Source of the DNA: Clostridia bacterium
Lineage (GTDB): Bacteria > Bacillota > Clostridia > UMGS1883 > UMGS1540
Direction: 5' to 3'
Assembly (NCBI GenBank): GCA_045533905.1
Contig: JAZSIR010000022.1
Coordinates: forward strand, 1 to 64,000
Length of the DNA stretch: 64,000 nucleotides
The notes under the pieces are model-generated. The model searched no databases and was not told the origin of the DNA. It saw only the letters and a program-made list of their open reading frames with translations. Below are positions 16,446 to 47,555 of this stretch, piece by piece. Position 1 is the stretch's first letter; every line of letters starts with the position of its first letter. Position numbers and translations under genes: made by a program.

Positions 16446-16448
16446 ATT

Positions 16449-16491
16449 TTTACAGCGCGTTCACAGTTTTTTCATATTTTTACGATATACT
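16449..16491 (+). promoter_or_regulatory. Three 11-bp-spaced boxes and -10 element upstream of htrA
   Basis: TTTACA (16449), TTCACA (16460), TTCATA (16471), then TATACT (16486) with no good -35. Confidence 0.55.
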
Positions 16492-16534
16492 GAAACTATC
16501 CTCTTTGAAATACAAGGATAAGGAGTGAAATATT

Positions 16535-17743: not shown

Positions 17744-17857
17744 GAAAAACGAAGAGAGGCTCCCCGCAGCCTCTCTTTTTGTATAAAAAACTTGCAAACT
17801 CCGGTGCAGTTTGTTATAATGTACATATACCACTTTTTGGAAAGGAAGGTTCTCACT

Positions 17858-18238
17858 ATGGATGAAAATAAAATGCCGGAAATTGCAAACGGCGTAAAAA
17901 TCTCGGATGATGTTGTACAGATTATTGCAGGCATTGCGGCAGGCGAAGTTGACGGCGTGCATTCGCTCGGCAATTCCCTGGCCGGCGGCATTGCGGAATT
18001 TCTCGGCGGCAAGAAAACCGTTTCGCGCGGCGTGAAGGTAGATATCCGCGAGACAGAGGTTTCTCTGGATGTGCACGTAGTGGTGCGCTACGGCGTTCGC
18101 ATTCCCGATGTTGCCTGGAATGTGCAGGAAAAGGTAAAGGATGCTGTGGAAACGATGACAGGCCTTACGGTTTCGAAGGTCAACATCCACATTGACGGCA
18201 TCAGTATGGACAAAGAAGAAGAGGCAGACGCCGAGTAA
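17858..18238 (+). CDS. Asp23/Gls24 family protein
   Basis: ISDDVV.IIAGIAA.EV.GV ... YG..IP.VA..VQ..VK..VE.MTGL.V..VNI motif. Confidence 0.92.
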
Positions 18239-18252
18239 AGGAGCACAAACAA

Positions 18253-18666
18253 ATGAAAAAGTTTCTGAAAGAATTCAAGGAATTTGCAATGCGCGGTAAT
18301 GTCATAGATCTTGCCGTCGGCGTTATCATCGGCGGTGCTTTCAAAGGAATCGTCGATTCTCTCGTAAACGATGTGGTTTCGCCCCTTATCGGCCTTGTGG
18401 CAAAAAAGGATTTCTCCACCCTTGTATTTACCATTTTAGGGGTGGAGGTGCACTACGGTGCCTTCATCACGGCCGTCATCAACTTTGTGATTATGGCCTT
18501 CGTCATTTTCCTTTTTGTAAAGCTTATGAACTCTCTTTCTGCTATCGGCAAAAAGGAAGAGGTTATCGTGGAAGCGGCAACCACCAAGATCTGCCCCTTC
18601 TGCAAGAGCGAAATTGCAATTGATGCTACGCGCTGCGCCCATTGCACATCTTCTCTGGAGGAATAA
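18253..18666 (+). CDS. mscL: Large-conductance mechanosensitive channel with C-terminal CxxC..CxxC
   Basis: [24 protein letters not shown] signature. Confidence 0.96.
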
Positions 18667-18669
18667 AAT

Positions 18670-20112
18670 ATGAAGCCTTTATTTACGTGTGACGAAGTCC
18701 GCACGGCAGAAGGTGCTTCCATCGCGGCCGGTATCCCCGGCCGCGTTCTTATGGAAAACGCTGCCTCGGCCGCCGCGCGCCTGTTGGAAAATGCATCCTC
18801 GGTATATATCTTTTGCGGCGCGGGCAACTGCGCGGGGGACGGCTTTGCCCTCTCGCGCCGCCTTTTTATCCGTGGCCGGAAAGTTACTGTTGTGCTTGTA
18901 GGCGATACTGCGCGCCTTCCGGAAGATGCAGCGGCAAACTTTGCCGCGGCCCGCGCGCTCGGCGTGCCTATGCTCGATTTTGACGAGGTGGCCGGCAGCC
19001 CGCTCCCGAAAGGAGCGCATATTGTCGATGCCATTTTGGGCATCGGCCTTTCCCGCGAGGTGGAAGGGAGATTCCGCGCGGCCATTTCCTATATAAACGA
19101 AAGCGGCGCACCCGTTTTGGCGCTGGATATTCCGAGCGGCATTGATGCCGATACCGGCCGCGTCTTCGGTTGCGCGGTGCGCGCTACGCACACGGTGACC
19201 TTTGGGCTGTGGAAGCTCGGCCTCTTCTCGCCGCTTTCGGCCGACTATGTGGGCGCGCTTTCCTTTGACGATGTTTCCATCCCCACGCCCGCCTCTTCGC
19301 GGCGCTTCCTTTTGGAAAAAGAAGATATTCTCCTGCCCCGTGCCGCGCGGGCGACACACAAAGGCACAAACGGGCACGCGGTCATCATAGGTGGCAGCCT
19401 CGGTATGGCCGGCGCGGCCGTGATGAGCGCGGAGGGCGCCCTTATGGGCGGCGCCGGGCTTGTGACAGTGATGGCAGAGGAAACCACGCTTCCCGTTCTC
19501 ACAAAGCGGCTGACGGATGCGATGTGCGCGCCGCTTTCCGCCTCGCTTCCCGAAAAAGCCAACGCCGTTTTGGTCGGCCCCGGTCTCGGAAGAGGTGAAG
19601 CAGGCAGAAAGGCGTTTATGACAGCGATAGAAGCGGCACGCGGCACGCTGATTCTTGACGCCGACGCTCTTTTCCACCTTGCAGAGGACCTCACCGTTTT
19701 GAAAAAGGCCAAATGCCCCGTAATTCTGACGCCGCATATGGGCGAGATGGCGCGCCTTTGCGGGCTTTCTGCCGCGGAAATTACGGAAAACCGCGTAGAA
19801 ATTGCGGAGCGTTTTGCGGCGGCGCACGACGTTACCCTCGTCCTAAAAGGTGCCTTTACCGTTGTGGCAAACCCCGCGGGACAGACATATATTAATATGA
19901 CAGGCAACGCGGGCATGGCAAAGGGAGGAAGCGGCGATGTGCTCGCCGGGCTCATCGCAGGGCTTTCCGCTTCCGGTGTGCCGGATGCGGCAAAAGCGGC
20001 CGTCTATCTCCATGGTATGGCAGGCGATATGGCCGCCGAAGCTTTAGGCGTGCGCTCGATGCGCGCCTCCTCTTTACTAAAATTTCTTCCCAAAGCAATA
20101 AAATGTATGTAA
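18670..20112 (+). CDS. nnr: Bifunctional NAD(P)H-hydrate epimerase/dehydratase
   Basis: LMENA, G.GN..GDG, DIPSG, HKG..G, GPGLG, DADAL, LTPH.GE and GGSGDVLAG motifs. Confidence 0.94.
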   Translation: MKPLFTCDEVRTAEGASIAAGIPGRVLMENAASAAARLLENASSVYIFCGAGNCAGDGFALSRRLFIRGRKVTVVLVGDTARLPEDAAANFAAARALGVPMLDFDEVAGSPLPKGAHIVDAILGIGLSREVEGRFRAAISYINESGAPVLALDIPSGIDADTGRVFGCAVRATHTVTFGLWKLGLFSPLSADYVGALSFDDVSIPTPASSRRFLLEKEDILLPRAARATHKGTNGHAVIIGGSLGMAGAAVMSAEGALMGGAGLVTVMAEETTLPVLTKRLTDAMCAPLSASLPEKANAVLVGPGLGRGEAGRKAFMTAIEAARGTLILDADALFHLAEDLTVLKKAKCPVILTPHMGEMARLCGLSAAEITENRVEIAERFAAAHDVTLVLKGAFTVVANPAGQTYINMTGNAGMAKGGSGDVLAGLIAGLSASGVPDAAKAAVYLHGMAGDMAAEALGVRSMRASSLLKFLPKAIKCM

Positions 20113-20236
20113 CGCCCTCTTTTTGTACAGAATAGTAGCGAAGGGAGCACCCCGGATGGCAGAAATTACATTTGACTTTGCCCTCGCCGCGCCGTATACT
20201 ATAAGTATACACAAAGGCGAAGGGAGGCTTGGTGCC

Positions 20237-20503
20237 GTGGGTGCGCACAAAAAAATATTAGTCAGCCTGCCCGAGGCATTCCTCGCGGAAACAGATGCTT
20301 TTCTGAAAGAGGAAGATATCTCAAGAAGCGAATTTATCCGCCGGGCAATGCAGTTCTATCTGAAGGAACGGCGACAGGAAAAACTGCGCCTTCTTCTGGA
20401 ACGAGGCTACCGTGAAATGGGCGAAATCAATCTGGAAATTGCCTGCGCCTGTTTCCACGCTGATACCGAAACTACGCTGAGGTATGAGGAGAATTTAGGG
20501 TGA
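20237..20503 (+). CDS. ndoAI: CopG/RHH antitoxin (EndoAI/MazE type)
   Basis: [27 protein letters not shown] motifs; GTG start after GGGAGG; overlaps the toxin start; TTGACT-N17-TATACT promoter upstream. Confidence 0.88.
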
Positions 20504-20850
20504 TTGTAAAAAGAGGCGATATTTATTACGCGGACTTAAGTCCCGTAATCGGTTCGGAGCAGGGCGGTGTCCGGCCCGTTCTGGTTGTGCAGAATGACGT
20601 CGGCAACCGCTACAGCCCCACCGTAATAGCCGCAGCAATTACAAGCCAGATAAACAAGGCGAAGATGCCTACACACATTGAAATTGACGCGCAGGACTAC
20701 GGTCTTGCCCGGGATTCCGTCGTGCTTCTCGAGCAGGTGCGGACGATTGACAAAAAACGACTGAAAGAAAAAATCGGACATCTCGATGCTTTTATGATGG
20801 ACCGTGTGAATACGGCGCTTGAAATCAGCTTTGGTCTGTCCGGAATGTAA
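20500..20850 (+). CDS. ndoA: MazF/PemK endoribonuclease toxin (EndoA)
   Basis: [35 protein letters not shown] signature. Confidence 0.97.
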
Positions 20851-20859
20851 GGAGAAAAA

Positions 20860-21633
20860 ATGACAACTATATTCGGATACACCCTCCGCTTCCTGCGGAC
20901 AAGGCAGAACGTTTCGCTTTCTGCGCTTTCTGAGGCCACCGGTCTTGGAGAGACAACGCTGGAAAATATTGAAAACGGTTACATACTGCCACCCGATGCA
21001 GTCGCAGAAAAGCTGGCCGCATACTTTGGCGTAACCGTTTCCTATATGACAGGGAGCGTGGAGGTCACAATGCCTACGAATGATGCAGAGGAGGCGGGCT
21101 CTCCGCAGCGGTATGTGCGCCTGCGCCCGATTCAGCTTACCAAAACGGTAGGCGGCGCAGAGCTTAGAAGTGCCACGGAGGCGGCGGATGTTATTTTACC
21201 ACTTCCGCAAAGCGACAGAAGCTCCTATGTGGCCGTGCAGGTGACCGATAACTCTATGCTGCGGTATCGCGCCGCGGCCGGCGATATTCTTGTGGTGCGG
21301 GAGGATACAGGGAAAATCCGCACGGGTGACCTCGTCCTTCTTTTATCGGAAGGCGGGCAAACGCTTCTGCGCCGCTATTTCCGCGAAGGTAATGATGTGC
21401 TTCTCCGCAGCGATGATGACGATTTGCTGCCGCCGCTCCGCCTTTCGGAATGTCGCGATACGTTTCGCCTCATCGGTGCGGTTATCCGGATTATTGTGGA
21501 GGTCGATGCCGCATTCCTGAAGCGGCGTTCGCAGAATCCGCCGCAAAATCCCGAGGAAATTCTGCCGCCGTTTGAAAGGCCGCTCGAGGGTGCGGGCAGT
21601 TGCGCCCCGCTTTCGCACGATTTCCGGTATTAG
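20860..21633 (+). CDS. XRE-family HTH regulator with S24/LexA-like C-terminal domain
   Basis: N-terminal HTH (LS..TG....LENIENG..P...KLAAYFGVTVSY); V.DNSM...GDILVV S24-like region. Confidence 0.82.
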   Translation: MTTIFGYTLRFLRTRQNVSLSALSEATGLGETTLENIENGYILPPDAVAEKLAAYFGVTVSYMTGSVEVTMPTNDAEEAGSPQRYVRLRPIQLTKTVGGAELRSATEAADVILPLPQSDRSSYVAVQVTDNSMLRYRAAAGDILVVREDTGKIRTGDLVLLLSEGGQTLLRRYFREGNDVLLRSDDDDLLPPLRLSECRDTFRLIGAVIRIIVEVDAAFLKRRSQNPPQNPEEILPPFERPLEGAGSCAPLSHDFRY

Positions 21634-21735
21634 AAAAACAAGAAGGCACTCCAGAAGGAGTGCCTCTTTTGCAGAATACGTAAGGGACTGTAAAAAAACT
21701 TTTGTTTTTTTACAGTCCCTTTTTGTGTTTCGGAA

Positions 21736-22851
21736 TTAGTTGATGATAGTGAGCTCTGTTTCCTTGTCGAAGAGGTGAATCTTGTTTGCATCGAGTGCAA
21801 CCGTGATATCCTGATCGATTTCTGCAGTAGAGCGGCGGTTTACACGAGCTACTGCCATAGTGCCTTCCACGAGGAGATACAGATATGTTTCAGCACCCAT
21901 CATTTCTGTGTTGTCAACACGGGCGGAAACAACGCTGTCAGCCATTGCGGAGATGTGCGCTTCGTCATCATAGATAGCTTCGGGACGGATACCTACAACA
22001 ACCGTCTTGCCGAAGTATTCTTCCTTGCCTGCAAGTGCCTTGGCCTTGCCTTCGGGAAGCTTGATCTTGGAATTACCGAAGGTGAGCGTTACAGTTTCGC
22101 CTTCTTTATTCAGAACTGCATCGAAGAAGTTCATCTGCGGGCTGCCGATGAAGCCTGCAACGAAGAGGTTTGCCGGTGTATCGTAGAGTTCCTGCGGGGT
22201 AGCTACCTGCTGAACGAAACCGTCCTTCATAACAACGATGCGGGTACCCATTGTCATAGCTTCTGTCTGGTCATGGGTTACGTAGATGAAGGTTGTAGCA
22301 AGACGTCTGTGCAGCTTGCCGATTTCGGAACGCATCTGTACACGAAGCTTTGCATCGAGGTTCGAAAGCGGTTCGTCCATAAGGAAGACCTTCGGCTCAC
22401 GAACGATAGCACGACCGAGCGCAACTCTCTGACGCTGACCACCGGACAAAGCTCTCGGCTTTCTGTCGAGAAGGTGTTCGATGTCAAGAATGCGGGCGGC
22501 TTCATGCACGCGGCGCTTGATTTCATCCTTCGGGGTCTTGCGGAGACGCAGACCGAATGCCATATTCTCAAATACCGACATATGCGGATAGAGAGCGTAG
22601 TTCTGGAAAACCATTGCGATGTCTCTGTCCTTCGGCATAACTTCGTTTACGAGTGTGTCGCCAATGTAAACTTCGCCTTCAGAGATTTCTTCGAGACCGG
22701 CAATCATACGGAGGGTAGTGGTTTTACCGCAACCGGAAGGACCAACCAGAATCAAAAACTCCTTATCAGCGATTTCGAGGTTTACATCACTTACAGCCGT
22801 AACACCGCCGGCATAGCGCTTGTAAACACCTTTGAGACTTAAACTTGCCAT
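21736..22851 (-). CDS. msmK: Stand-alone sugar ABC transporter ATPase (MsmK/MsmX/UgpC family)
   Basis: GPSGCGKTT Walker A, LSGGQRQR, DEPLSNLDAKLR, YVTHDQTEAMT, C-terminal TOBE region. Confidence 0.93.
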   Translation of the reverse strand: MASLSLKGVYKRYAGGVTAVSDVNLEIADKEFLILVGPSGCGKTTTLRMIAGLEEISEGEVYIGDTLVNEVMPKDRDIAMVFQNYALYPHMSVFENMAFGLRLRKTPKDEIKRRVHEAARILDIEHLLDRKPRALSGGQRQRVALGRAIVREPKVFLMDEPLSNLDAKLRVQMRSEIGKLHRRLATTFIYVTHDQTEAMTMGTRIVVMKDGFVQQVATPQELYDTPANLFVAGFIGSPQMNFFDAVLNKEGETVTLTFGNSKIKLPEGKAKALAGKEEYFGKTVVVGIRPEAIYDDEAHISAMADSVVSARVDNTEMMGAETYLYLLVEGTMAVARVNRRSTAEIDQDITVALDANKIHLFDKETELTIIN

Positions 22852-23007
22852 AATAGCACATTCCTTTCTTACTGTGAGGGCATATTTCACCCTTTACTTT
22901 TTATTCTGCAATTAGTATAGCACATTTATCCCGCGTTTGGAAGTGGTAAGTCCTACAAAAACCCCTTGTGTTTTTTGTAAAAATTGCATAATTCACGGCG
23001 AGAATTG

Positions 23008-23391
23008 TCAGTTTTGCGGCGGAAGCGCCTCGAGAAACCCATTAAGCTGCGGTGAAAGGATATCGCCGCCGAGAAGTTTTCCGTCCTTCCAGTAAAAATT
23101 GGCGTAGGTAGCTTCCGGGTGGTTTTGCACCGGGCAAGAAAGATGCCACACCGCCTGCCCGCCGAACGCGCGAAGCGGGAAGCCGTTTGCCGTCTGCTCC
23201 CGAAGGTAGGCTTCCCAGGCGCTGTCGGGCGCAGACGGCAAAATTATTTCCTCCTTTGTATACGCGCCCGCGCGGGCAAGCCCCATTGCCGAAAGAACCG
23301 CATCGCACCTTTGCTCCGCCGCATACGGCTTTGTAAAGGCGGCCAGAAAAAGCACGGCCGCCCAAAGTACAACCGGAAAGCCCTTGCGCAT
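23008..23391 (-). CDS. Small secreted protein (DUF4830-like)
   Basis: Signal peptide; EEI.LP....W..Y...Q...GF.L and LLGGDI.S....GF motifs. Confidence 0.65.
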   Translation of the reverse strand: MRKGFPVVLWAAVLFLAAFTKPYAAEQRCDAVLSAMGLARAGAYTKEEIILPSAPDSAWEAYLREQTANGFPLRAFGGQAVWHLSCPVQNHPEATYANFYWKDGKLLGGDILSPQLNGFLEALPPQN

Positions 23392-23579
23392 CCCGTCCCC
23401 TCCCAAAAAGATGTTTCTTATTTATATGCGAGCAGCACCGCCTCTATACCAATTTGCATTTTCTGGAAAAAATTGTAAATTTTTCTTGCTTTCGTTTCCA
23501 GTTTCTGGTATACTATGTAAAAGATGGAAAATATTTCCATCGAAATCTGCATAAATCAACAAATAAGGAGAGATACGAA

Positions 23580-24212
23580 TTGGAAGGAGAAACCAGAACG
23601 AAAACAAACACAGCCACCATTGCAGGATTTATTGAGGATGAGGCAGTTTTCAGCCACAGCGTGTACGGGGAGGGATTTTACACCTTTCACGTTTCGGTGC
23701 CGCGCCTTTCAGAGGCCAAGGACCTCGTGCCCGTTACCGTGTCGGAGCGGCTCTGCGACCCCGCCCTCCTGGTGCCCGGAGAAAGAGTGGAAATTTTAGG
23801 GCAGTTCCGCTCCTACAATAATTACAGCGATGAGGGCAACCGCCTGATGCTGACGCTTTTTGCCCGCGAGCTTCGCTTCCCCGAGGGCGAGAGCGAGGTG
23901 CCGCCGAATGAGATTGTGCTTGTAGGCTTTATCTGTAAGCCGCCGGTCTACCGCCACACGCCCTTCGGGCGGGAAATTGCGGATATGCTCATTGCCGTCA
24001 ACCGTTCTTACAACAAATCGGACTACATCCCCTGCATCGCCTGGGGACGGAACGCGCGCTTCTCGCGTACCCTCGCCGTAGGTGACAAGGTGCGGCTTTC
24101 GGGGCGCATCCAGTCGCGCGAGTACCGAAAGCGTCTTTCAGAGGAGGAATATACCACAAAAACAGCGTATGAAATTTCCGTGATCAAAATCGAAACAGCT
24201 GCCGAGGCGTAA
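23580..24212 (+). CDS. ssb: Single-stranded DNA-binding protein with two OB folds
   Basis: FSH..YGEGFY, GQFRSYN, YR.TPFGREIAD, SDYIPCIAWGRNA motifs; TTG start after AAGGAG. Confidence 0.9.
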   Translation: MEGETRTKTNTATIAGFIEDEAVFSHSVYGEGFYTFHVSVPRLSEAKDLVPVTVSERLCDPALLVPGERVEILGQFRSYNNYSDEGNRLMLTLFARELRFPEGESEVPPNEIVLVGFICKPPVYRHTPFGREIADMLIAVNRSYNKSDYIPCIAWGRNARFSRTLAVGDKVRLSGRIQSREYRKRLSEEEYTTKTAYEISVIKIETAAEA

Positions 24213-24277
24213 AAAAGGCTTGACTTTTTCCAAATTTTCTGTATAATGGAATAAAGAAAGAAAAGGAGGATTTTTCT

Positions 24278-24505
24278 ATGAAAGCTTTTGATGTTATGCT
24301 CGGTTCCATTGTAGACGTAAAGAATTTTGTAAATGTGGTCAACCGCTACGATTTTGAGATTGACCTTATTTCCGGCCGCTATGTGGTCGACGCCAAGTCC
24401 ATTATGGGCATCTTCAGCCTTGACCTCGGCAAGCCGATCCGTGTGGAAGTGCACACCGATGCACCCGAAGAAATTATGGCAGAGCTTAAACCCTTTATGG
24501 CATAG
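24278..24505 (+). CDS. HPr-family protein (Ser46-type motif kept, no active-site His)
   Basis: VDAKSIMGIFSLDL motif; the N-terminus lacks the GLHARP motif. Confidence 0.88.
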   Translation: MKAFDVMLGSIVDVKNFVNVVNRYDFEIDLISGRYVVDAKSIMGIFSLDLGKPIRVEVHTDAPEEIMAELKPFMA

Positions 24506-24746
24506 GGATATAAAAAGGGCAGCAGAGCACAAAAAGGAATAAAATCAAAGGGACTCTCCAAAATTGGAGAGTCCCTACTCGTTTGTACTTTCTTTTGTCA
24601 GCGCACCAGTCAATGGGGGCCCCGAAAAGCCTTGGCTTTTTGGGGAAGAGGAGAAGCAAGGAAGCTGAGCGGTGTTTTCGCCGAAGAGGCGAAACGTAGC
24701 GGGCGAACTTTGCTTCGACGAGTGGTCTGCGCCTTTTTTACATCCC
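24505..24746. mobile_element. MITE-like element with terminal inverted repeats, flanked by TA
   Basis: Left end GGGATATAAAAAGGGCAGCAGAGCAC; right end (reverse complement) GGGATGTAAAAAAGGCGCAGACCAC; TA on both sides; internal hairpins; related copies at about 34.0-34.3 kb and 47.5 kb. Confidence 0.7.
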
Positions 24747-25108
24747 TAAAGTTCTACGCGGACTTCTTTTGCAAGAAACTCGCTGTTGTCATCATCCGTG
24801 TCAGCGTTTTCTACAATCAGCACGTGCGCATCGCGGCTTGTGGCAATCGTGTGCCATACGCCTCGCTTGACATTATACGTTTTGTTTTTCTCCATCGGCA
24901 CTTCCTCTGCATTTTCGCCGACAAGAAGTGTAGCGCGGCCTTCGAGGAGTACGAACACCTCGTCCGTTTCCATATGGCGCTCCAGCTTATTGATTTTCTG
25001 CGGATCAAACCGTTCGGAATAATTGAGGTACGCAACGCGCCAACCCTCGAAGTATACAACCGGCTTATAGTCTACACCGGTGTAGTGCAGAATTTCAAGT
25101 CCTTCCAT
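24746..25108 (-). CDS. Cupin-fold protein (ureidoglycolate lyase-like)
   Basis: LERH..TDEVFVLL.G and YNVK.GVWH motifs. Confidence 0.75.
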   Translation of the reverse strand: MEGLEILHYTGVDYKPVVYFEGWRVAYLNYSERFDPQKINKLERHMETDEVFVLLEGRATLLVGENAEEVPMEKNKTYNVKRGVWHTIATSRDAHVLIVENADTDDDNSEFLAKEVRVEL

Positions 25109-25110
25109 TT

Positions 25111-25557
25111 TTATGCCTCCTCTTCTCCGTGATCGTGGTGGCAGCTGCCGCAGCACCCGTCACACTTCTTCGCGCCCGGAAATTCGATTCCGGTGCGCTT
25201 GCAGTAATCTTCAATCGCGGCGTGAATCGCTTCTTCCGCGAGCACCGAGCAATGGAGCTTTGCTGCCGGAAGCCCATCCAGCGCCTCCACAACGGCGCGG
25301 TTTGTAATCTCCAAGGCTTCCGTTACGGTTTTGCCTTTTACAAGTTCCGTGGCCATACTGCTCGTGGCAATTGCCGCGCCGCAGCCGAAGGTTTTGAACT
25401 TGATATCTTCAATAACTTCGTTTTCGTTTATCTTCATATACATTTTCATAATATCGCCGCATTTGGCGTTGCCCACCGTGCCAACGGCGTTAGCATCTTC
25501 AATTTCGCCCACGTTGCGGGGATTTTGGAAATGGTCCATTACTTTTTCGGAATACAT
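25111..25557 (-). CDS. iscU: Fe-S cluster scaffold IscU/NifU
   Basis: YSEKVMDHF.NPRNVG, CGDIM, FKTFGCG and KLHCSVLAE motifs. Confidence 0.96.
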   Translation of the reverse strand: MYSEKVMDHFQNPRNVGEIEDANAVGTVGNAKCGDIMKMYMKINENEVIEDIKFKTFGCGAAIATSSMATELVKGKTVTEALEITNRAVVEALDGLPAAKLHCSVLAEEAIHAAIEDYCKRTGIEFPGAKKCDGCCGSCHHDHGEEEA

Positions 25558-25558
25558 A

Positions 25559-26731
25559 TTAAAGCTCCTTTCCTTTTTGAACTTCTTCATAAAGCGGCGA
25601 CATCTGCCGCAGCTTTTCTACAATCGGCACAAGCGCTTCCAAAAATGCATCGACTTCCTCTTCCGTATTTTCTGCCGAAAGGGACACGCGAAGAGACCCG
25701 TGTGCAATCTCGTGCGGAAGGCCGATGGCGAGAAGCACGTGCGAGGGGTCAAGCGAGGCAGAAGCACACGCCGAGCCGCTCGATACGGCAAAGCCCGCGA
25801 GCGCGAGATGGAGTAGAAGCCCTTCGCCCTCTATAAAGCGGAACGAGAAGTTCGCGTTGCCGGGGGTGCGCATTTCTCTGTCGCCGTTCAAAATCGTATA
25901 CGGAATGGCACCGAGCACGCCATCGATCAGTTTTTCGCGAAGGCGGCGGATATATGCCATTTTTTCTTCTAAATTCGCCGTGGCATCCTCAATCGCCGTG
26001 GCAAGGCCCTGGATGTAGGCGGTGTTTTCCGTGCCGGCGCGCATACCGCGCTCCTGCCCGCCGCCGTGAATGAGCCGTTCAATCTTTACGCCTTTTTTGA
26101 TGTACAGTGCGCCAATGCCCTTCGGGCCGTGGAACTTGTGCGCGGAAAGGCTGAGCATATCCACCCCGAGTTCCTTTACATCCACGGGGATGGCGCCTAC
26201 GGCCTGCACCGCATCGGTGTGGAACAAAACGCCCTTTGCGTGGGCAATCTCAGAGAGCTCGCGAATCGGTTGAATCGTGCCGATTTCGTTATTGACATAC
26301 ATAATGGATACAATGGCCGTATCCTCGCAAATCGCCTCGGAAAGCGCTTCGGGCGAGACGAGCCCGCGGCTGTCTACGGGGAGATAGGTAACGCGGCAGC
26401 CCTGTTTCTCTAAAAACTTACAGGTATGCAGCACCGCGTGATGCTCAATGGCCGAGGTGACCACGTGCGTTTTGCCCGTTTTATAAATGGCACCGAGGAT
26501 GGCCCAGTTATCTGCCTCACTGCCGGAGGCCGTGAAGTAAATCTCGCCGCTGTCGGCTCCGAGGCAGGCGGCTACGCGCGCCCGCGCCTTCTCCATATCG
26601 CGGCGTGCATCTGCGCCCGCGGCATAAAATATGGAGGAAGGATTCCCGAAACAGTCTTCAAAATATGGAAGCATCGCCTGCCGCACACGGGGGCTTACCG
26701 CCGTGGTGGCCGCGTTGTCGAAATAAATCAT
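25559..26731 (-). CDS. iscS: Cysteine desulfurase IscS/NifS
   Basis: [29 protein letters not shown] and SSGSAC motifs. Confidence 0.96.
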
Positions 26732-26865
26732 GGTATCATCCCTTTCTAAAAGTATATTATACACCCATCCACACCCTTTTTTCAACCTTTTTTTGAAAAA
26801 GGAAGTAAAAAAATAGTGCGTTTTTTCGCCGGATATGCTACAATAAAAGAAAAGGAAGTGACAAA

Positions 26866-27747
26866 ATGCCGCTCTTTGCACCGGACTATTATAAAAACTT
26901 CATATGCAAAGCCGGAAAATGCCGCCACTCGTGCTGCATCGGCTGGGAAATTGAGATTGACGACGCTACGCTTTCGCGATATAAGAAGGAGACGGGCGCG
27001 CTGGGCGCGCGGCTTTCTGCGCACATCTCGGAAGAGGGCAACGCGCACTTTGTTAAAGGTACAAACGGCCGCTGTCCCTTTTTAAGCACAGAGAACCTTT
27101 GTGATATAATTCTCACGTTCGGAGAAGGCGCGCTTTGCGACATCTGCCGTGACCATCCGAGGTACCGGAATTTTCTCCCCACGCGCACAGAAATCGGCCT
27201 CGGCCTTGCCTGCGAGGAAGCGGCGCGGCTGATTCTCGAGGGCGAGGGCCGCTATGGAGAAATCTGCCTTTCGGGCGAAGAGATACCCCCGGAAGGCGAC
27301 GAAGCGCTCTTTTTCGCCCTTCGCGACGGGATTCTGGAGCTTTTATTCGATGAGACCTGTACGGCAAAAGAGGCGTTTGCCAGCATCCGCGCGGCGTATG
27401 GCATCGCAGAGGCGGACGCGGATTTTTATACACTCTACAAAAATATGCCGCATCTGTACCCGTCGTGGGAAGCGGTGCTCGAAGGGTTCTCGCATCCTTC
27501 CGCCTTTTTTCCCGATATGCCTGCAAGAAGGCTCTGCGCCTATTTTGTGCACCGGCATCTGGCGGGCGGCACGGGGGACGGAAGATGGCGGGCGCGCATT
27601 GCCTTCTGTCTCCACGCGGCCGAAAGCATCTGCCTCCTCTCGCCCGATGCGGGCGCGTTTCCGGAAACCGCGCGGCGGTATTCCGAAGAAATTGAGTATT
27701 CCGAAGAAAACGTCGAAACGCTTCTTTCGGCGCTCGATGCAGTATAA
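26866..27747 (+). CDS. FliB-family (flagellin lysine-N-methylase-like) protein
   Basis: PDYY..F.C....[16 protein letters not shown]...LC, C..HPR, EIEYS motifs. Confidence 0.85.
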
Positions 27748-27780
27748 CAAAACCTCCCGAAAAAAATCGGGAGGTTTTGT
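27748..27780. terminator. Bidirectional terminator
   Basis: CAAAACCTCCCGA-loop-TCGGGAGGTTTTG hairpin between convergent genes. Confidence 0.8.
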
Positions 27781-28343
27781 TATGCCGATTCCAGCGCATC
27801 TATTCCAAAGAAAAGAACAGACAGACGCTCCAGCAGTCTGTTTTTATTCCGCCGCACGGTGGAGGGGTCACAGGAAAGCATTTCTGCAATTTCCTCCTCG
27901 GAGCGGCCTTCCGTATATTTGAGGTGAAGAATTTCAAAATACGGGTCACCCGAAAGAGAAGTGACGGCGCGGTCAATCCGTTTGGCCGCAAGGCGGTTAC
28001 GCGTAAGCAGTGCCTCCACATCCGCACGGCGGTGCGGCATACCGAGCGCCGCGCCCGACGGCAGAAGGTGCACCACCTTGTTCTCCGTTTTCTCATATGC
28101 CATAACAGAAGGCGGCCCCTCCTCCGGGAGAAGCAAAAGTTCCTCCTCCAGGGAGGAAATCAAAATACCGAGCCCTTCTCTTGCATACAAAAGCCGCTCT
28201 ACCCTGTCGCGCACCTCGCGGGGCGCCGCATTTCTCGCTTTCTTTTCGCCGGCCTGCATCGCGCACAGGATGCCCCGGCTGATCATTTCCTGCAGTTCGT
28301 TCCGAAAGGTCATTCTTTTGTCGTTTGTTTCGCTTTGTCGCAT
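27780..28343 (-). CDS. Sigma-70 region-4-like HTH regulator (ArpU/RinA-like)
   Basis: C-terminal IL.LKY.EG.S.EEIAE.L.CD.STVRRNK.RL...L...FG pattern. Confidence 0.7.
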   Translation of the reverse strand: MRQSETNDKRMTFRNELQEMISRGILCAMQAGEKKARNAAPREVRDRVERLLYAREGLGILISSLEEELLLLPEEGPPSVMAYEKTENKVVHLLPSGAALGMPHRRADVEALLTRNRLAAKRIDRAVTSLSGDPYFEILHLKYTEGRSEEEIAEMLSCDPSTVRRNKNRLLERLSVLFFGIDALESA

Positions 28344-28354
28344 CGTGTGCCTCC

Positions 28355-28564
28355 TTATTTTTCGTTTTCTGTGTCTTCTGAAAACCGTGTGTACAACGAA
28401 TCAAAGATTGCATGGTACACCGTTCCCCTGGTTGTGTTCCGTTTTGCAAACTGAAGTGCCGAAAGCGTAAGCCGCCTTTGGCAGGACGCACACAGACAAA
28501 ATTCTGCGAGAGTGGACAGTCGCCTTTCGCTGTTGCAAAATACGCACTTTTCTTCTTGTGGCAT
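28355..28564 (-). CDS. Small CxxC...CxxC zinc-finger protein
   Basis: AAAGGAGG RBS, then MPQEEKCVFC...CLCASC; TTGACA...TATACT promoter upstream. Confidence 0.6.
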   Translation of the reverse strand: MPQEEKCVFCNSERRLSTLAEFCLCASCQRRLTLSALQFAKRNTTRGTVYHAIFDSLYTRFSEDTENEK

Positions 28565-28655
28565 GCCTCCTCCTTTCTGTTGCTTTTTAGCAACAAGGTA
28601 AGTATACACCAATTTTTTTCTTCTGTCAAGTCCTTTTTCAAAAAAGGGGCCCCCT

Positions 28656-28916
28656 TTATTCCGCCAGATAATCGTCTAAAATTTCAAAAAAGGTGGCGGG
28701 GGTAACCTGCAGGCGGCAGAGCTTTTGCATAAGCGCAACGGTTCCTTCGGCATCCGGCGAAAAATCCTTCACCGTCTTCGTTTCCCGCATATCGGAAATA
28801 CCGATGCCGCAAACCTCTGCTCCGAGCGCGGGCGAAGCGTGCAGCGGTGTGACAAAATAATGAAGGCGAAGATGCCCTTTTTCTGTTGTAATTTCAATAA
28901 CGGACTCCCAAAGCAT
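28656..28916 (-). CDS. Small conserved clostridial protein (DUF6514-like)
   Basis: GI.I...D.S......L..KL.R.QVTP..F.EILDD pattern; AAAGGAG RBS. Confidence 0.7.
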   Translation of the reverse strand: MLWESVIEITTEKGHLRLHYFVTPLHASPALGAEVCGIGISDMRETKTVKDFSPDAEGTVALMQKLCRLQVTPATFFEILDDYLAE

Positions 28917-29296
28917 TTGGCTCTCTCCTTTCAGCCTGCTCATTATATCCGCATTTTTCGGCGTTTGCAATATGCATTTTTGAACGCGCATCGCACATTG
29001 CGATTTCCAGAATATGGAAATTGTTTTTGTGCCGGCACCCCCTAAATCCCTGCCACTTTTGGCTGCTTTATTTACTTTTTAGAAATTTTTTACTGTATTC
29101 CTTCGCATATTTTTTTCATTTTTCTTGAAAATTCTATGATTTTTTTCGTGTTTTCTCTTTTATTTCTTGTACAAAACGCTGTATCTTTTTCTAAAAATAC
29201 GGAGTTTCTACCTTTTTAATGTGATTTTTTATTTATATTTCTTCCGGCAAAAAACAAAGGGGGCTTTTCACATTTTTTCGGGCAATGGCGATTTTC

Positions 29297-29325
29297 TTGA
29301 CAAGATATGGAAATGCATATATAAT
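29297..29325 (+). promoter_or_regulatory. sigmaA promoter of sstT
   Basis: TTGACA-N17-TATAAT. Confidence 0.8.
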
Positions 29326-29371
29326 AAATGTAGTTTTTTGGATTTGCCCCTTGCGGCAAAAAGGAGGATTT

Positions 29372-30595
29372 ATGAAGAACATTTTCGGTTTCTATACGAA
29401 ATCGCCCCTCATCCTGCGCATCGCCATCGGCCTTGTGATTGGTGTGTGTCTGGGGCTTTGGGTGCCGAGTGCCGGCTTTGTAACCGTATTCGGCTCCGTT
29501 TTCCTCGGCGCCTTAAAGGCCATTGCGCCGCTTCTCGTTTTCGTGCTTGTGGTCTCTTCCCTTGCAAGCGCAGGCGAAGGGCTCGGGCGGCGTTTCCGCT
29601 CGGTTATCTTCTTTTATATGCTTTCCACATTTCTCGCGGCTGTCTGTGCCGTTCTCTTCAGCTTTGCCTTCAAAGTAACCCTTCCGCTTGCTGCGGCGGC
29701 AGAAGGGGCGCCGCCCACAGGGCTTGGTGAAGTATTCCGCACGCTTCTTTCGAATATGGTTATGAACCCCGTGGAGGCACTCCTTTCAGCAAACTATGTG
29801 GGCGTTTTAACGTGGGCAGTCATTTTAGGCCTTGCCCTTCGCGCGGTTGCAAGTGCGCACACGAAGGAAGTACTTACGGATGTTGCAAACGCCGTAAGCC
29901 GCGCCGTGGGCTTTGTCATTCAGCTCGCGCCCTTTGGCATTATGGGGCTCGTGTATAGCTCCGTCAATGAATACGGCATTGAAATTTTCACGGATTACGG
30001 TATGGTTTTAGCCATTTTGGTCGGCTGTATGCTTATGGTGGCGCTCGTGGTGGACCCCTTAATCGTTGCCATCGCACTGCGCAGAAATCCGTATCCGCTT
30101 GTTTTCCGCTGCTTCCGTGAATCGGGTCTTACCGCCTTCTTCACAAGAAGCTCCGCCGCCAATATCCCCGTCAATATGTCTCTTTGCGAAAAGCTCGGCA
30201 TTGACCGCGACTATTACAGCGTATCTATCCCTCTCGGTGCCACCATCAATATGGACGGTGCCGCCATCACCATCACTGTAATGTCCCTCGCGGCGGCCTT
30301 CTCGCAGGGCATTGAGGTCAATATTTTCTTTGCCATTCTCTTAAGCTTTGTGGCCACGCTCGGCGCGTGCGGCGCCTCTGGTGTTGCAGGCGGCTCTCTC
30401 CTTTTAATCCCGATGGCCTGCTCCCTTCTCGGCGTAGGGCAGGATATTGCGATGCAGGTTGTGGCCGTTGGGTTTATCATCGGCGTTGTGCAGGATTCTC
30501 TGGAGACGGCTATCAACTCCTCCGGTGACGTTATTTTCTGCGCCACGGCAGAATTCCGCGAATGGCAGAAGGAAGGCAGGAAGCTTCCCTTCTGA
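29372..30595 (+). CDS. sstT: Serine/threonine transporter SstT
   Basis: ALKAIAP.LVF.LV, AFFTRSSAANIPVN, IPLGATINM.GAA, ACGASGVAGGSLLLIP motifs. Confidence 0.95.
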   Translation: MKNIFGFYTKSPLILRIAIGLVIGVCLGLWVPSAGFVTVFGSVFLGALKAIAPLLVFVLVVSSLASAGEGLGRRFRSVIFFYMLSTFLAAVCAVLFSFAFKVTLPLAAAAEGAPPTGLGEVFRTLLSNMVMNPVEALLSANYVGVLTWAVILGLALRAVASAHTKEVLTDVANAVSRAVGFVIQLAPFGIMGLVYSSVNEYGIEIFTDYGMVLAILVGCMLMVALVVDPLIVAIALRRNPYPLVFRCFRESGLTAFFTRSSAANIPVNMSLCEKLGIDRDYYSVSIPLGATINMDGAAITITVMSLAAAFSQGIEVNIFFAILLSFVATLGACGASGVAGGSLLLIPMACSLLGVGQDIAMQVVAVGFIIGVVQDSLETAINSSGDVIFCATAEFREWQKEGRKLPF

Positions 30596-30608
30596 AACTG
30601 CTGATTCC

Positions 30609-30642
30609 AAAGCCGCAGAGGGAAAGGCTTCTGCGGCTTTTT
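30609..30642 (+). terminator. Intrinsic terminator of sstT
   Basis: AAAGCCGCAGAG...TTCTGCGGCTTTTT hairpin with U-tract. Confidence 0.8.
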
Positions 30643-30656
30643 CTATGCGCTTATAT

Positions 30657-30697
30657 TTGACAAAAAATACAGAATATGCTATACTGAAAGAAAGGAG
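30657..30697 (+). promoter_or_regulatory. Near-consensus sigmaA promoter with extended -10, plus RBS, facing the sigG breakpoint
   Basis: TTGACA (30657)-N17-TATACT (30680) with TG at the extended position; AAAGGAG at 30691-30697. Confidence 0.75.
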
Positions 30698-30725
30698 TTT
30701 GTACCCTTTTCGTGCGGGTACATTC

Positions 30726-31211
30726 GTGCCAATGATTATAGGTGAAATTCGAAGATATCTTCGTGACAACAATGCCATACGCGTCAGCCGTTCACTTCGC
30801 GACACGGCGTACCGCGCCCTCGCCGTCCGGGAAAAGCTCTCCTCTGAAAAGGAGCCGACGGTGGAGGAAATCGCAAAGGAGCTCGGGCTTCCGAAGGAAG
30901 ATGTTGTCTTTGCGCTCGATGCGATACTGGATCCCGTTTCCCTCTTTGAACCCGTGTATCACGACGGCGGCGATGCGCTCTATGTGATGGATCAGGTGCG
31001 CGACACAAAAAGCACCGACGAAAACTGGGTAGAAACGCTCGCCCTCAAGGATGCGATGCGCCGTCTTTCGGAACGGGAAAAGCTGATTATAAACCTTCGC
31101 TTTTTTCAGGGGCGCACCCAGATGGAGGTGGCCGAGGAAATCGGCATTTCGCAGGCGCAGGTTTCGCGCCTTGAAAAAAGTGCACTTACCAGTATGCGCC
31201 GCCACATCTGA
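30726..31211 (+). CDS. sigG: 3' portion of sporulation sigma factor SigG (region 2.4 to region 4); 5' part absent
   Basis: VPMIIGEIRRYLRDNN.IRVSRSLRD.AY.AL ... DPVSLFEPVY.DGGD..YVMDQ ... RFFQG.TQMEVAEEIGISQAQVSRLEK. The upstream frame has no sigma similarity (no NLRLV, DDLFQVG or FSTYA). Confidence 0.9.
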   Translation: MPMIIGEIRRYLRDNNAIRVSRSLRDTAYRALAVREKLSSEKEPTVEEIAKELGLPKEDVVFALDAILDPVSLFEPVYHDGGDALYVMDQVRDTKSTDENWVETLALKDAMRRLSEREKLIINLRFFQGRTQMEVAEEIGISQAQVSRLEKSALTSMRRHI

Positions 31212-31269: not shown

Positions 31270-31629
31270 ATGCATACAAAGCTTTTTGCCGTACTTTTAG
31301 CACTTATACTCGTTTTACCCGCCGGCTGCGCAAAGCGGTACTCTTCGGAACATTCCGTACCCACAGCCACGCCGCGGCCGCATCGCGTTGACCTTGCAGG
31401 CAACCCCATCACGCAGGAATATACCGACGGCACGTTTCTCCGCGTGGAAGGCAACACGCTTTTTGCGGAGACTGACGGCAAAGAGAAGACTTTTATTCTG
31501 AGTGAACGCGCAGAAGGGGACCTTGCCGCTCTCGGCATCGCCGAAGGTACGCGTATGATCATAAACTATACCCTTCTGGAAAGCGGCGAGCTACAGGCAG
31601 ACAGCCTTGAGAAAATTTTAAGCGAATAG
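31270..31629 (+). CDS. Hypothetical lipoprotein
   Basis: AAAGGAG RBS; signal peptide with LPAGC lipobox. Confidence 0.75.
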   Translation: MHTKLFAVLLALILVLPAGCAKRYSSEHSVPTATPRPHRVDLAGNPITQEYTDGTFLRVEGNTLFAETDGKEKTFILSERAEGDLAALGIAEGTRMIINYTLLESGELQADSLEKILSE

Positions 31630-31643
31630 CCGCGGAGGACAAA

Positions 31644-33992
31644 ATGGATTCTTTGAAAACACTGGAATTTTATAAGATACGCGCCCTGCTCGCCGAAGAG
31701 GCCATCTCGCCCGCGGCGCGCGAGGCGCTTTTGTCGCTTTGCCCGAGTGACGATACGGAAACAGTCCGCCGCACGCTTTCGGAAACGAACGAGGCACGGG
31801 ATATGAGCGCAAAGCACGGCGCACCGCCCCTCTCGCCCGTACGCGAGATACACACTTCGATGAAGCGCTGCCGCGTGGGTGCTGTTTTATCCATCGGCGA
31901 AATGCTTCGCACCGCTTCCGTTTTATATGTGGCCGAGCGGCTTCTTGCCTATGCTGATATTGACGGGTTTTCGGATACATACCCCGCACTGCACGCCGAA
32001 ACAGCCCGCCTTACGCCGCTTTCTTCGCTCTCGCGCCGCCTTTCGGGCGCCTTCCTCGATGAAAACACTGTGGCGAGCGATGCAAGCCCTGCGCTTCTCG
32101 CCATCCGCCGCAAAATGGAAAGCACCACATCGAAAATTCGCGATATTTTAGATGAAATCATCCATAGCCCTGCGCACGCCAAGGCACTGCAGGAACAGCT
32201 GGTTACAATGCGCAGTGGTCGGTATGTTGTGCCTGTGAAGGCCGAGGCACGCGGCTCCGTGCCCGGTGTTGTGCACGACACGTCGCAATCAGGCTCCACG
32301 CTCTTTGTAGAGCCGATGCGCGTTGTGGAAGCGAACAACCTTCTCCACCGCCTTGCGGCCGAGGAAAAGGATGAAATCGGGCACATTCTCGCGGCTTTCT
32401 CCGCGGAAATTGCGGAGCACGCGGCGGAAATTACAGAAAATTACGATGCCATTATCCGCCTTGATTTTATGTTTGCAAAAGCGCGGTTTGCCGACCGGCT
32501 CGGGGCGACGTGCCCCACCGTGCGGACGGACGGCGTGGTGGATATCCGCCGCGGGCGGCATCCGCTTCTTGCGAAGGACAAGGTGGTGCCGATTGATATC
32601 TCCGTGGGCGATGCCTTTGACACACTCGTAATTACCGGCCCCAACACGGGCGGCAAAACGGTTTCCTTAAAAACCATTGGTCTCTTTGTTTTGATGGCCG
32701 CTTCGGGCCTGCACATTCCGGCGGCGGACGGGTCTTCCGTTTCTGTTTTCGACTATGTTTTTGCCGATATCGGGGACGAGCAAAGTATTGAGCAGTCGCT
32801 TTCCACCTTCTCTTCCCATCTTGTAACGATTATTGAAATTCTGCGGCTTTCCGGCCCGCGCACGCTCGCGCTTTTTGATGAGCTCGGCGCCGGAACCGAC
32901 CCCACGGAAGGGGCGGCGCTCGCGCGTGCAGTGCTTGATGCGATGCGCAAAAAAGGTGCGCGCACCGTGGCCACCACGCATTATAGTGAAATTAAGCTCT
33001 TCGCGCTTGAAACCGAGGGCGTGGAAAACGCGGCCTCGGCGTTTGATATTGAGACGCTTCGCCCCACGTACCGCCTTGAAATCGGCGCACTCGGGCAAAG
33101 TAACGCCTTTGCAATTGCCGCGCGGCTCGGGATGCCCGAAGGGATTATCGAAAACGCGCGCACGTTTGTGGACGCGGAAAGCACACGGTTTGACGATGTG
33201 ATACGGCGCCTCGAAGCACAGCGGCGCGCCCTTTCCGAGCAAAGCGAACAGGCGGAGGCCGACCGCATCCGCGCGAAAGAGATGAAAGAACGCCTATCAA
33301 AAGACGCCGAAAACACAGAGGCCAGACGGCAGAAGATTTTAGACGATGCAAGACGCGAAGCGCGCGCACTTCTGCAAAACGCCAAAGCGGAAATTGACAA
33401 GGAAATCAAAGCGGCACTGGCCGCCGAAAATAAAAAGGCCGCGCTTGAAAAAGCACGCCAGAAGGTGAAAAAGGGACTCGATACGGTTTCGGAAACGCTT
33501 TCAAAAGATGCCGTTCGTCCTGCAAAGGTGGCGATTTCCGCGGCAGAAATCCGCCCCGGCACACCCCTTTACCTCGACGCTATGGGCCAGCGCGGCACGG
33601 CGCTGCGCGCCCCCGATAAGGACGGAAATTTAGAGGTGCAGGTGGGCGTTATGAAAATCAAAACGCACATCTCCACCGTTTCGGCCGCCCCGCCTGAAAA
33701 GAAGAAGCCTTCGCACACGCCCACAGGGTATAAGCGTGGCGCGGTGGAAGGCCTGAAAACAGAGGTCGACCTTCGCGGTATGACGCTGGACGAAGCCGAA
33801 CTCGTTACCGAAAAATTCATTGACGATGCCGTTCTTTTGCATCTCGAAACGGTTACGGTGATCCACGGTAAAGGCACAGGCGTCCTGCGAAGCGGCATCC
33901 ACGCGCTTTTGAAGCGGAATCCTTCCGTAAAATCCTTCCGTCTCGGCAAATATGGCGAGGGCGAAGATGGGGTAACGATTGTAACACTGTAG
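31644..33992 (+). CDS. mutS2: MutS2 endonuclease/ribosome collision factor with Smr domain
   Basis: ITGPNTGGKT, DIGDEQSIEQSLSTFSSH, DELGAGTDP.EG, IHGKGTG motifs. Confidence 0.97.
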   Translation: MDSLKTLEFYKIRALLAEEAISPAAREALLSLCPSDDTETVRRTLSETNEARDMSAKHGAPPLSPVREIHTSMKRCRVGAVLSIGEMLRTASVLYVAERLLAYADIDGFSDTYPALHAETARLTPLSSLSRRLSGAFLDENTVASDASPALLAIRRKMESTTSKIRDILDEIIHSPAHAKALQEQLVTMRSGRYVVPVKAEARGSVPGVVHDTSQSGSTLFVEPMRVVEANNLLHRLAAEEKDEIGHILAAFSAEIAEHAAEITENYDAIIRLDFMFAKARFADRLGATCPTVRTDGVVDIRRGRHPLLAKDKVVPIDISVGDAFDTLVITGPNTGGKTVSLKTIGLFVLMAASGLHIPAADGSSVSVFDYVFADIGDEQSIEQSLSTFSSHLVTIIEILRLSGPRTLALFDELGAGTDPTEGAALARAVLDAMRKKGARTVATTHYSEIKLFALETEGVENAASAFDIETLRPTYRLEIGALGQSNAFAIAARLGMPEGIIENARTFVDAESTRFDDVIRRLEAQRRALSEQSEQAEADRIRAKEMKERLSKDAENTEARRQKILDDARREARALLQNAKAEIDKEIKAALAAENKKAALEKARQKVKKGLDTVSETLSKDAVRPAKVAISAAEIRPGTPLYLDAMGQRGTALRAPDKDGNLEVQVGVMKIKTHISTVSAAPPEKKKPSHTPTGYKRGAVEGLKTEVDLRGMTLDEAELVTEKFIDDAVLLHLETVTVIHGKGTGVLRSGIHALLKRNPSVKSFRLGKYGEGEDGVTIVTL

Positions 33993-33996
33993 GTGA

Positions 33997-34345
33997 GGAA
34001 TGTAAAAAAGGCGCCGAGCGCAAAAAGGCAAAGTTTTGATTTGCGTAGTTTGTGCACCGACAAAAGAAAATACAAACGGGTAGGGACACTCTTTTGAGTG
34101 TCCCTTTGTTTTGTGCCTTTTTGCTACGCGAAAACTTTGCCGCTCGGCGTACGGGTGTACGCCTTCGGGTTTCCCCGCGGCAAGCCGCGGGCAAAGTTTA
34201 CCGCGTTCTGCATCCTTTTTTCCTATTCCTGCAACCAAAAGCGCCGAGCGCAAAAAGGCAAGGGAAATATCTTACTTGGCTTATGCACTGACAAGAGGAA
34301 ATACAAACGGGAAGGGGCTCTCCAAATTGGAGAGCCCCTTCCCGT
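33997..34345. repeat. Two tandem copies of the MITE-like repeat; the first carries a nested hairpin insert
   Basis: GCGCCGAGCGCAAAAAGGCAA at 34011 and 34241, each followed by TGCAC(C/T)GACAA(A/G)AG(A/G)AAATACAAACGGG and a GC hairpin; homologous to 24505-24746 on the opposite strand. Confidence 0.75.
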
Positions 34346-47543: not shown

Positions 47544-47555
47544 CTTGCAAAGAGA

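Follow-up and report, generated by a model that had tools for sequence, protein, structure and literature searches.

What can a headless fragment of the gene for the forespore sigma factor SigG mean when its reading frame is uninterrupted and it lies among host genes? The window (the whole stretch of 64,000 nucleotides analyzed here, on contig C2 of a Clostridia genome, G000, of 1.57 Mb in 23 contigs, 95.5% complete) carries 162 stop-free codons, from VPMIIGE to RRHI and the stop, that match positions 91-254 of the SigG profile TIGR02850 with 287 bits. This agrees with an earlier note on the same DNA, which had described SigG-like codons beginning abruptly at VPMIIGE and had remarked that the N-terminal part and the spoIIGA-sigE pair are absent from the window. 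Both are found elsewhere in the genome, the former on contig C7 and the latter on C8. The two parts of the gene are:

30726-31211, forward strand: 3' part of sigG, codons about 95-255, regions 2.4-4
C7:26176-25890, reverse strand: 5' part of sigG, 97 codons, TIGR02850 positions 1-96

The 5' part reads from MAMHKVD to KFSTYAVPM, after which four foreign codons lead to the end of the open reading frame (ORF). Joining the two parts in silico yields an in-frame SigG of 255 amino acids, and the best profile score of the split gene is that of SigG. A genome-wide search of the 23 contigs found no intact sigG at the given completeness of 95.5%; a full-length copy was among the findings that the earlier note would have taken as refuting its model. 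The spoIIGA, sigE, sigK (on C13) and spoVT genes and one SASP gene are intact in G000, and a sigF-like gene is present with a score under the family cut-off.

The anatomy of the cut identifies it as the attL/attR pair of a serine integrase, with both sigG halves ending there; this identification is based on the inverted-repeat arms, a shifted TTTC motif, frozen codons in the coding arm and the in-frame join. The components of the sites are:

30707-30728, forward strand: P arm of attR (element-side half-site), 22 bp, consensus TTTC-R-Y-N7-C-R-Y-T-C-R-T-G
C7:25868-25889: P' arm, adjoining the 5' half, which repeats the P arm in inverted orientation at 16/22 positions
30729-30730, forward strand: crossover dinucleotide CC, the first two bases of the Pro codon in YAVPM
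C7:25891-25890, reverse strand: partner CC at the 5' half
30725-30735, forward strand: 11-bp core common to both halves, with exactly two copies in the genome, C2:30725 (forward) and C7:25895 (reverse)
30731-30752, forward strand: B' arm of attR, within the sigG coding sequence, with the TTTC motif 4 bp closer to the center than in the P arms

In 19 genomes, the P and P' arms are symmetric at 16.4 of the 22 positions on average, whereas the 22 bases that follow reach 5.9 of 22; the CC dinucleotide is the center of this symmetry, and its position is constant in the split genomes examined. The P arm is kept in all 12 split genomes of family f1, which includes G000, and at 11/11 3' junctions of a second family, f10. 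The two G000 sites score 33.5 and 25.7 and the next-best candidate 19.7, so that the genome scan, in which no comparable third att site was found, gave no sign of multi-gene scrambling in G000. Joining at CC produces an in-frame SigG of 255-262 amino acids in each of the 19 genomes with both complete halves (G021, where the contig ends inside an arm, was excluded). The synonymous sites of the coding arm do not vary among split genomes but do so among 31 intact genes, and the codons ATA, GGT and GAA that follow the cut are invariant in 10/10 split genomes of the f1 family, as would be expected of a recombinase-binding arm. The earlier note had considered the first codons atypical: their rarity is real (ATA accounts for 12% of the Ile codons of G000 and CGA for 5% of the Arg codons) and ATA is conserved, but the CGA and AGA codons are not. 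According to the passages of PMC3783163 that deal with the LI/A118 integrase, a 5-bp shift of a motif distinguishes attB from attP in that system; at the sigG site the shift is 4 bp.

The junction motifs listed in the earlier note are all present:

30700-30706 and 30716-30722: TGTACCC and GGGTACA, arms of a local hairpin
30709 and 30723: the repeat TTCGTGC
30750-30763: a 14-bp palindrome

The hairpin and the palindrome, however, are not the recombination site; both are at chance level, with 286 equivalent 7-bp inverted repeats and 196 equivalent palindromes in the genome. The hairpin fails a fixed-offset test in 11/11 relatives; the one relative in which the eye still recognizes it, with a displaced spacer, is G004, which is also the only one of the 11 to keep the palindrome. 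The pentamer AATGA (30731) can be rejected as the crossover, which is placed at the CC of the Pro codon. A metagenome scan with the f1-specific arm-plus-core pattern returned three matches, which we take to be chance occurrences because neither sigG nor a second arm follows. Four DNA sequencing runs, with pieces of about 150 bases at approximately 2x depth and many matches from other organisms, contained none across the junction.

The candidate enzyme is encoded on the same contig as the 5' half:

C7:3304-1949, reverse strand: serine recombinase, 451 aa, 23 kb from the 5' half
C7:3432-3307, reverse strand: 42-aa ORF directly before the recombinase, candidate directionality factor

The earlier note had named a 5' half ending near FSTYA beside a recombinase as support for its model; the half does end there, in KFSTYAVPM, but the recombinase, 23 kb off, is beside neither half. 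The protein contains the PF00239 and PF13408 domains, with PF07508 over the cut-off, and the catalytic Ser10, the DRLSR motif and four cysteines (C270/273/291/307) are invariant. The gene is adjacent to neither half in any f1 genome and adjacent to one in G221, a member of the second family, and in many other genomes; the recombinase ORF of G221 even extends into the attR arm and stops within it. G000 has four more serine recombinases (three on C11 and one on C8) and five tyrosine recombinases, which were set aside, on sequence alone, as mobile-element types.

A small ORF of 39-62 codons precedes the enzyme in 11/11 f1 loci, 12/12 f10 loci, 43/71 other loci and 0/42 viral loci; the 42-aa product in G000 has no Pfam match at E 1e-10. 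A pattern following the SigF consensus, GYATA / GGnnAnAHTR (as given in part of PMC11599450), occurs upstream of the small ORF in 7/11 f1 loci compared to 4 of 1292 gene upstream windows, and in full form in 0/12 f10 loci and 1/71 other loci. The -10 box alone stands before 20 of 43 small ORFs compared to 35/1297 in the background. In f1 the SigF-type promoter motif keeps a constant spacing to the small ORF, and its -10 box recurs in other lineages; given that the pattern was initially adjusted by eye to these same sequences and that the genomes are kin and hence non-independent, the match is support rather than proof. By analogy with CD1234 of Clostridioides difficile, the 42-aa ORF may encode a directionality factor expressed in the forespore.

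A different ORF of about 200 codons, with a start resembling MTRKQA, adjoins attP in phages and, where an element has no 42-aa ORF, attR (L209:7394-7999, L210:3481-4077, L290:2416-3030 and L291:18808-19464). It has no Pfam match and is a second candidate for a directionality factor.

Among 61 genomes, comprising G000 and 60 relatives, 12 have only halves, 47 have an intact sigG and 2 are without sigG. The halves-only genomes belong to family f1, where they make up 9/9 genomes of genus g1 and 3/3 of genus g3. Recombinase orthologues (70-92%) occur in exactly the 12 split genomes, with a single match, of 39%, in the other 49; none of the 47 relatives with intact sigG carries an orthologous recombinase. 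Eleven relatives show the same junctions as G000, and the breakpoint comparison that the earlier note had proposed places the cut at the same codon in all split relatives. In a class-wide sample, recombinase orthologues of 54-58% were detected in 12 of 14 genomes of f10, and a split sigG was therefore predicted in this family; 13 of the 14 genomes indeed have only halves (both in nine, one in four), and the single intact one, where no orthologue was found, is 65% complete. Across the best 80 recombinase loci in GTDB, a sigG half lies within 10 kb in 41 and an intact sigG in none.

Genomes selected for carrying the enzyme give a similar picture. All five in one set are split, and in a set of 50, drawn from 60 enzyme carriers by leaving out the 10 on the shortest contigs, 42 are split, six have one half, one has none and one, G454, is intact. 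Two further sets yielded 0/20 and 3/9 intact genes; the three intact cases have a distant recombinase homologue (46%) and an extra fragment bearing stops. In these genomes (G1043, G1058 and G1241; locus L320) the homologue is followed by a diverged, stop-bearing sigG/sigF-like 3' fragment, and the intact sigG is elsewhere. In two order samples, the prevalence is at least 26/401 and at least 10/401. One half was not found in G008 (the 5' half), G221, G298, G273 and G418. Carriers in culture or with closed genomes exist (loci L159 and L178).

The f1 recombinases form one clade (support 1.0), as do the joined SigG sequences of f1 (0.976), with the f10 clade separate; these topologies indicate several invasions, each followed by vertical inheritance. 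In g1, the median dN/dS, from unsaturated pairs only, is 0.068 for the 5' half, 0.039 for the 3' half and 0.061 for the recombinase, compared to 0.023-0.037 for intact-gene controls, so that the value of the 5' half is slightly raised. Purifying selection acts on both halves and on the enzyme, and the 0.04-0.07 obtained for the fragments answers the earlier call for such an estimate. All f1 genomes are fragmented assemblies; the same cut is seen also in 13 f10 assemblies and in closed chromosomes. Misassembly, which the earlier note had kept in play, is very unlikely because the identical junction recurs in 12 independent assemblies. Each refutation test of the earlier note that could be run speaks for its rearrangement model.

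The position of the 5' half differs between the two families. In f1 it has moved from the usual spot behind sigE (in G000, C7:26176-26260 and C8:20453-22065) and has, by eye, a forespore-type promoter motif of its own; in f10 it is still behind sigE.

Viral contigs that carry the same recombinase family point to the origin of the site. In 19 of 43, a symmetric joined site, defined by at least 17/24 matching arm positions, lies behind the gene, and L210 has a further joined attP site. A first viral scan with a joined-attP pattern had given 0 matches; the pattern was too narrow, as attP sites were later found behind phage recombinases. In locus L206, an arm and the core are followed by the sigG 5' half (attL, a prophage end), and in L209, which also encodes terminase and portal proteins, the same arm and core are followed by a second arm (a joined attP). 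The two have the P arm and 94% of the recombinase gene in common and diverge at the core; they are integrated and excised forms of one phage type; a second such set consists of L232-233 and the L231 group. Together with the joined state of G454, discussed below, these forms indicate that this enzyme family recombines the sigG site. Large gut viral contigs (L217-L243, up to 192 kb) combine the recombinase with a joined attP, and these phages use sigG as an integration site, given that two of the contigs end in the sigG 3' half. Gut phages use exactly the site that is cut in G000, where no phage genes were seen around the sites or the enzyme.

The surroundings of both sites in G000 consist of host genes. 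The features next to attR in the window are:

29372-30595, forward strand: sstT (NF010151, 568 bits), host gene on the element side of attR
30610-30643, after sstT: terminator-like hairpin, seen in the sequence and missed by the hairpin scan
30657-30685, forward strand: SigA-type promoter TTGACA-17-TATACT, 11/12 consensus with an extended -10, reading into the 3' half
31270-33992, forward strand: host genes following the 3' half, namely an ORF of 119 codons that matches no known family and mutS2

As long as sigG is split, the SigA-type promoter probably drives the 119-codon ORF and mutS2; a similar one was recognized by eye before attR in most g1 genomes and in 0/3 g3 genomes. The mutS2 gene follows the 3' half in 6/8 other g1 genomes, the remaining two contigs ending earlier. 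Before the 3' half there are 30.7 kb of host genes, and beyond the P' arm on C7 lie nusA, rimP, infB, nusG, rplK/A/J/L (all but nusA recognized from their translations), the recombinase and then the end of a 16S rRNA gene. In either orientation, the rearrangement would displace at least 56 kb of the host chromosome in G000. The relative placement of C2 and C7 in G000 was sought through overlaps, pairing of IS target sites, a MITE-like repeat, GC skew and gene strand, and no link emerged; C2 is without strand bias, and no contig pairs with its left end.

Geometry could be read in 17 other genomes in which both halves lie on one contig, a criterion that favors short elements. In 13 the halves are direct, spaced 0.44, 2.5, 2.5, 3.4, four times about 6.4, 6.8, 14.7, 18.8 and 105 kb and 1.03 Mb, and in four they are inverted, at 26, 50, 450 and 757 kb, so that both of the arrangements envisaged in the earlier note, inversion and excision with reintegration, are represented. 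Inversion is seen in four of the six genomes in which over 20 kb separate the halves. The intervening segments contain essential genes, such as ftsZ, murD, murE, gltX and infC. In the inverted G448, the 26 kb hold mraZ-murD-ftsW-ftsZ; in the inverted G1093 (50 kb), the recombinase is 860 kb away, and this genome resembles G000 in that the enzyme is far from both sites; the inverted segments of G872 (757 kb) and G1296 (450 kb) span a GC-skew switch, with both halves on leading strands. Inversion is not required, given that the two direct cases G822 (105 kb with ftsZ, murE, infC and rsmH) and G447 (1.03 Mb, with a skew consistent with one replichore) also span essential DNA. At the other extreme, the halves in G986 (L314:4907-5343) are only about 436 bp apart, too short for a recombinase, and the enzyme is encoded on a separate contig, so that this is a minimal split that has persisted with no cargo.

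One genome, G454, is in the joined state: it has an intact sigG, the enzyme and the small ORF, and a host contig of 158 kb carries a joined attP. Its flanks are purA-sigG-nrdR and attP-fusA-pfkB-pyk, and those of its relative G1296 (SigG 97% identical) are purA-5' half, P' arm-fusA-pfkB-pyk and P arm, 3' half-nrdR, so that from gene order the two genomes look like two states of one switch. The fourth flank differs, the left attP side of G454 matching the P arm of G1296 at 11/22 positions. G454, a single genome, may be a fixed revertant rather than a transient state. A joined attP was found in 0/61 relatives with a pattern that would have caught 10/10 f1 sites, and in none of the four other genomes scanned together with G454.

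The reading that we favor is that an integrase kept by the host rejoins sigG in the forespore by inverting the large segment between the halves and then inverts it back, to which we assign a probability of about 0.5; that a programmed, reversible rearrangement of one geometry or the other takes place in the forespore seems quite probable. In the proposed sequence of events, SigF would turn on the 42-aa ORF and the recombinase in the forespore, and recombination of attL with attR would yield an intact sigG and a chromosomal attP. With the decay of the directionality factor, the default attB x attP reaction of the integrase would split sigG again, a reset that would explain why growing cells are always found split. 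Short direct elements would need the reset as well, because a single cycle without it would remove them from the germ line. If this scheme is correct, SigG would be delayed until chromosome translocation brings in the farther half, because both sites must be inside the forespore. A bolder and more tentative generalization is that whole Clostridia lineages domesticated a sigG-targeting phage integrase as a germ-line switch, with the forespore at each round of sporulation inverting, or excising and restoring, tens to hundreds of kilobases of essential chromosome before resetting it, which would amount to a DNA-level checkpoint for SigG.

The same enzyme and timing could also operate on halves that are direct in G000, in which case the forespore chromosome would resolve into two circles that re-integrate before or at outgrowth; the attP circle would comprise no less than 56 kb of host DNA, including nusA, infB and an rRNA operon. 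Direct orientation would be the starting geometry after phage insertion and, as shown by the same-contig counts and by G822 and G447 in particular, is common; we nevertheless regard this version as doubtful, considering the predominance of inversion at spacings above 20 kb, the kinship of the joined G454 with the inverted G1296 and the likely lethality to the spore of losing an essential circle. It is quite unlikely that the rearrangement is real but stochastic and low-level, a form of phase variation in which only the minority of cells with an intact sigG completes sporulation. A genome assembled wholly in the joined state (G454) and the weakness of the full SigF pattern outside f1 would fit this possibility, as would the expression of the C. 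difficile skin recombinase in vegetative cells mentioned in part of PMC5025042. The SigF-type promoter motif at a fixed distance in f1, the -10 box elsewhere and the missing joined attP in all 61 relatives argue against it.

Models in which the DNA is never rejoined, the halves acting as separate proteins or being joined at the RNA level through the complementary arms, appear highly improbable. The strong SigA-type promoter before the 3' half, an in-frame ATG at 30732 and the complementarity itself are compatible with such models, but the ATG lacks a ribosome-binding site, the promoter is absent in g3, the arms match phage attP, and a recombinase with intact catalytic residues is kept in 12/12 genomes; furthermore, the cut falls inside what we take, from sigma-70 structure, to be region 2. 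Equally hard to sustain, and strongly disfavored, is the view that the split gene is a dead prophage relic in a non-sporulating lineage or an assembly error. The fragmentation of all f1 assemblies and the five genomes that seem to miss one half could be cited for it, but the junction is the same in 12 f1 and 13 f10 assemblies and in closed chromosomes, dN/dS is near that of intact controls, the att codons are frozen and genes of the SigG regulon are present.

The favored scheme belongs with the known rearrangements of sporulation genes and departs from them in several respects. Skin elements split sigK in B. subtilis (recombinase SpoIVCA/Skr), in C. difficile (CD1231 with the directionality factor CD1234) and in 12 further species, according to portions of PMC6957869, PMC5025042 and bioRxiv 10.1101/2022.02.25.481979; the last of these, in the portion consulted, counts split sigK in 15 species, with the recombinase always at the element edge. 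As described there, a skin element is 2.6-48 kb of dispensable DNA that is excised once, in a cell that dies. The sigG case shares with skin an attL/attR pair that divides a sporulation sigma gene, an enzyme of the large serine recombinase type with Ser10, phage origin and a small partner gene under a putative compartment-specific sporulation promoter, here a SigF-type motif in contrast to the SigE type in skin. In contrast to skin, the target is sigG, which acts in the forespore and thus the germ line, and not sigK, which is intact in G000; the enzyme is 23 kb from attL rather than at the edge; the intervening DNA is at least 56 kb of essential host chromosome rather than compact and dispensable; and inverted geometry occurs and the event has to be undone. 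Given this skin-like working and the lack of the features that define skin, the sigG split is best regarded as a variant of the serine-integrase sporulation rearrangements.

Other serine-integrase elements whose excision rebuilds a sporulation gene include SPbeta/spsM, phi3T/kamA and those in gin/gerE, spoVFB and spoVR (PMC6957869, PMC5595907, in part), almost all of them in mother-cell genes according to the former; the passages available from these two papers describe neither a sigG case nor an inversion. As in the SPbeta/spsM group, active phages and degenerate elements share the type of site. Large serine integrases of the LI/A118 family use attP and attB together with a directionality factor (parts of PMC3783163 and PMC12286644), and the sigG system resembles those of phages in its attP of about 46 bp, symmetric arms, non-palindromic central dinucleotide and the inward position of the distal motif in attB. 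A germ-line, reversible rearrangement of host chromosome would be unlike the one-way excisions described in mother cells.

Reversible inversion alters coding sequences also in phase-variable invertons, some of which are intragenic; these are short, stochastic segments between two like inverted repeats, whereas the sigG sites are attL and attR, separated by tens to hundreds of kilobases, and the trigger is probably developmental. In the literature searched, including the portions available from PMC3789822, PMC13626063, PMC10111431 and PMC7438776, no description of a split sigG was found, although supplements and tables of earlier surveys could list sigG.

When selection maintains a split forespore sigma factor throughout whole genera, the rearrangement has to be reversible and to take place in a heritable cell; if this is true, the system offers a new answer to the question of how SigG is held back until late forespore development. 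It also predicts that genome annotation wrongly scores these gut bacteria as lacking sigG, and supplies an integrase family with a conserved attB and candidate directionality factors.

Several minor observations concern the neighborhood. In 7/8 other g1 genomes, a response regulator gene stands directly and divergently before attR, along with a sensor gene and htrA if the contig is long enough; in G000 and G004 this place is taken by sstT (window 14357-30600), which suggests a local rearrangement beside attR. In all three g3 genomes (L049, L050 and L058), a gene resembling ftsK/spoIIIE, judging from its translation, ends 15-46 bases before attR. The window also contains an ORF with only a sigma region-4-like end (27780-28343, reverse strand) and a gene of the PemK/MazF family (20500-20850, forward strand). 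Positions 1-140 of the window and 16 other contig ends of G000 carry an element that, from its ends, we take to be IS3-like, inserted in the loops of terminator hairpins, the arms of which pair six couples of contig ends (C5-C7, C6-C23, C8-C12, C9-C19, C10-C13 and C16-C14). Finally, a dispersed repeat of about 290 bp with terminal hairpins has copies on at least nine contigs, among them window positions 34090-34229 and 47512-47546 and C7:1641-1960, the last starting right after the stop codon of the recombinase.
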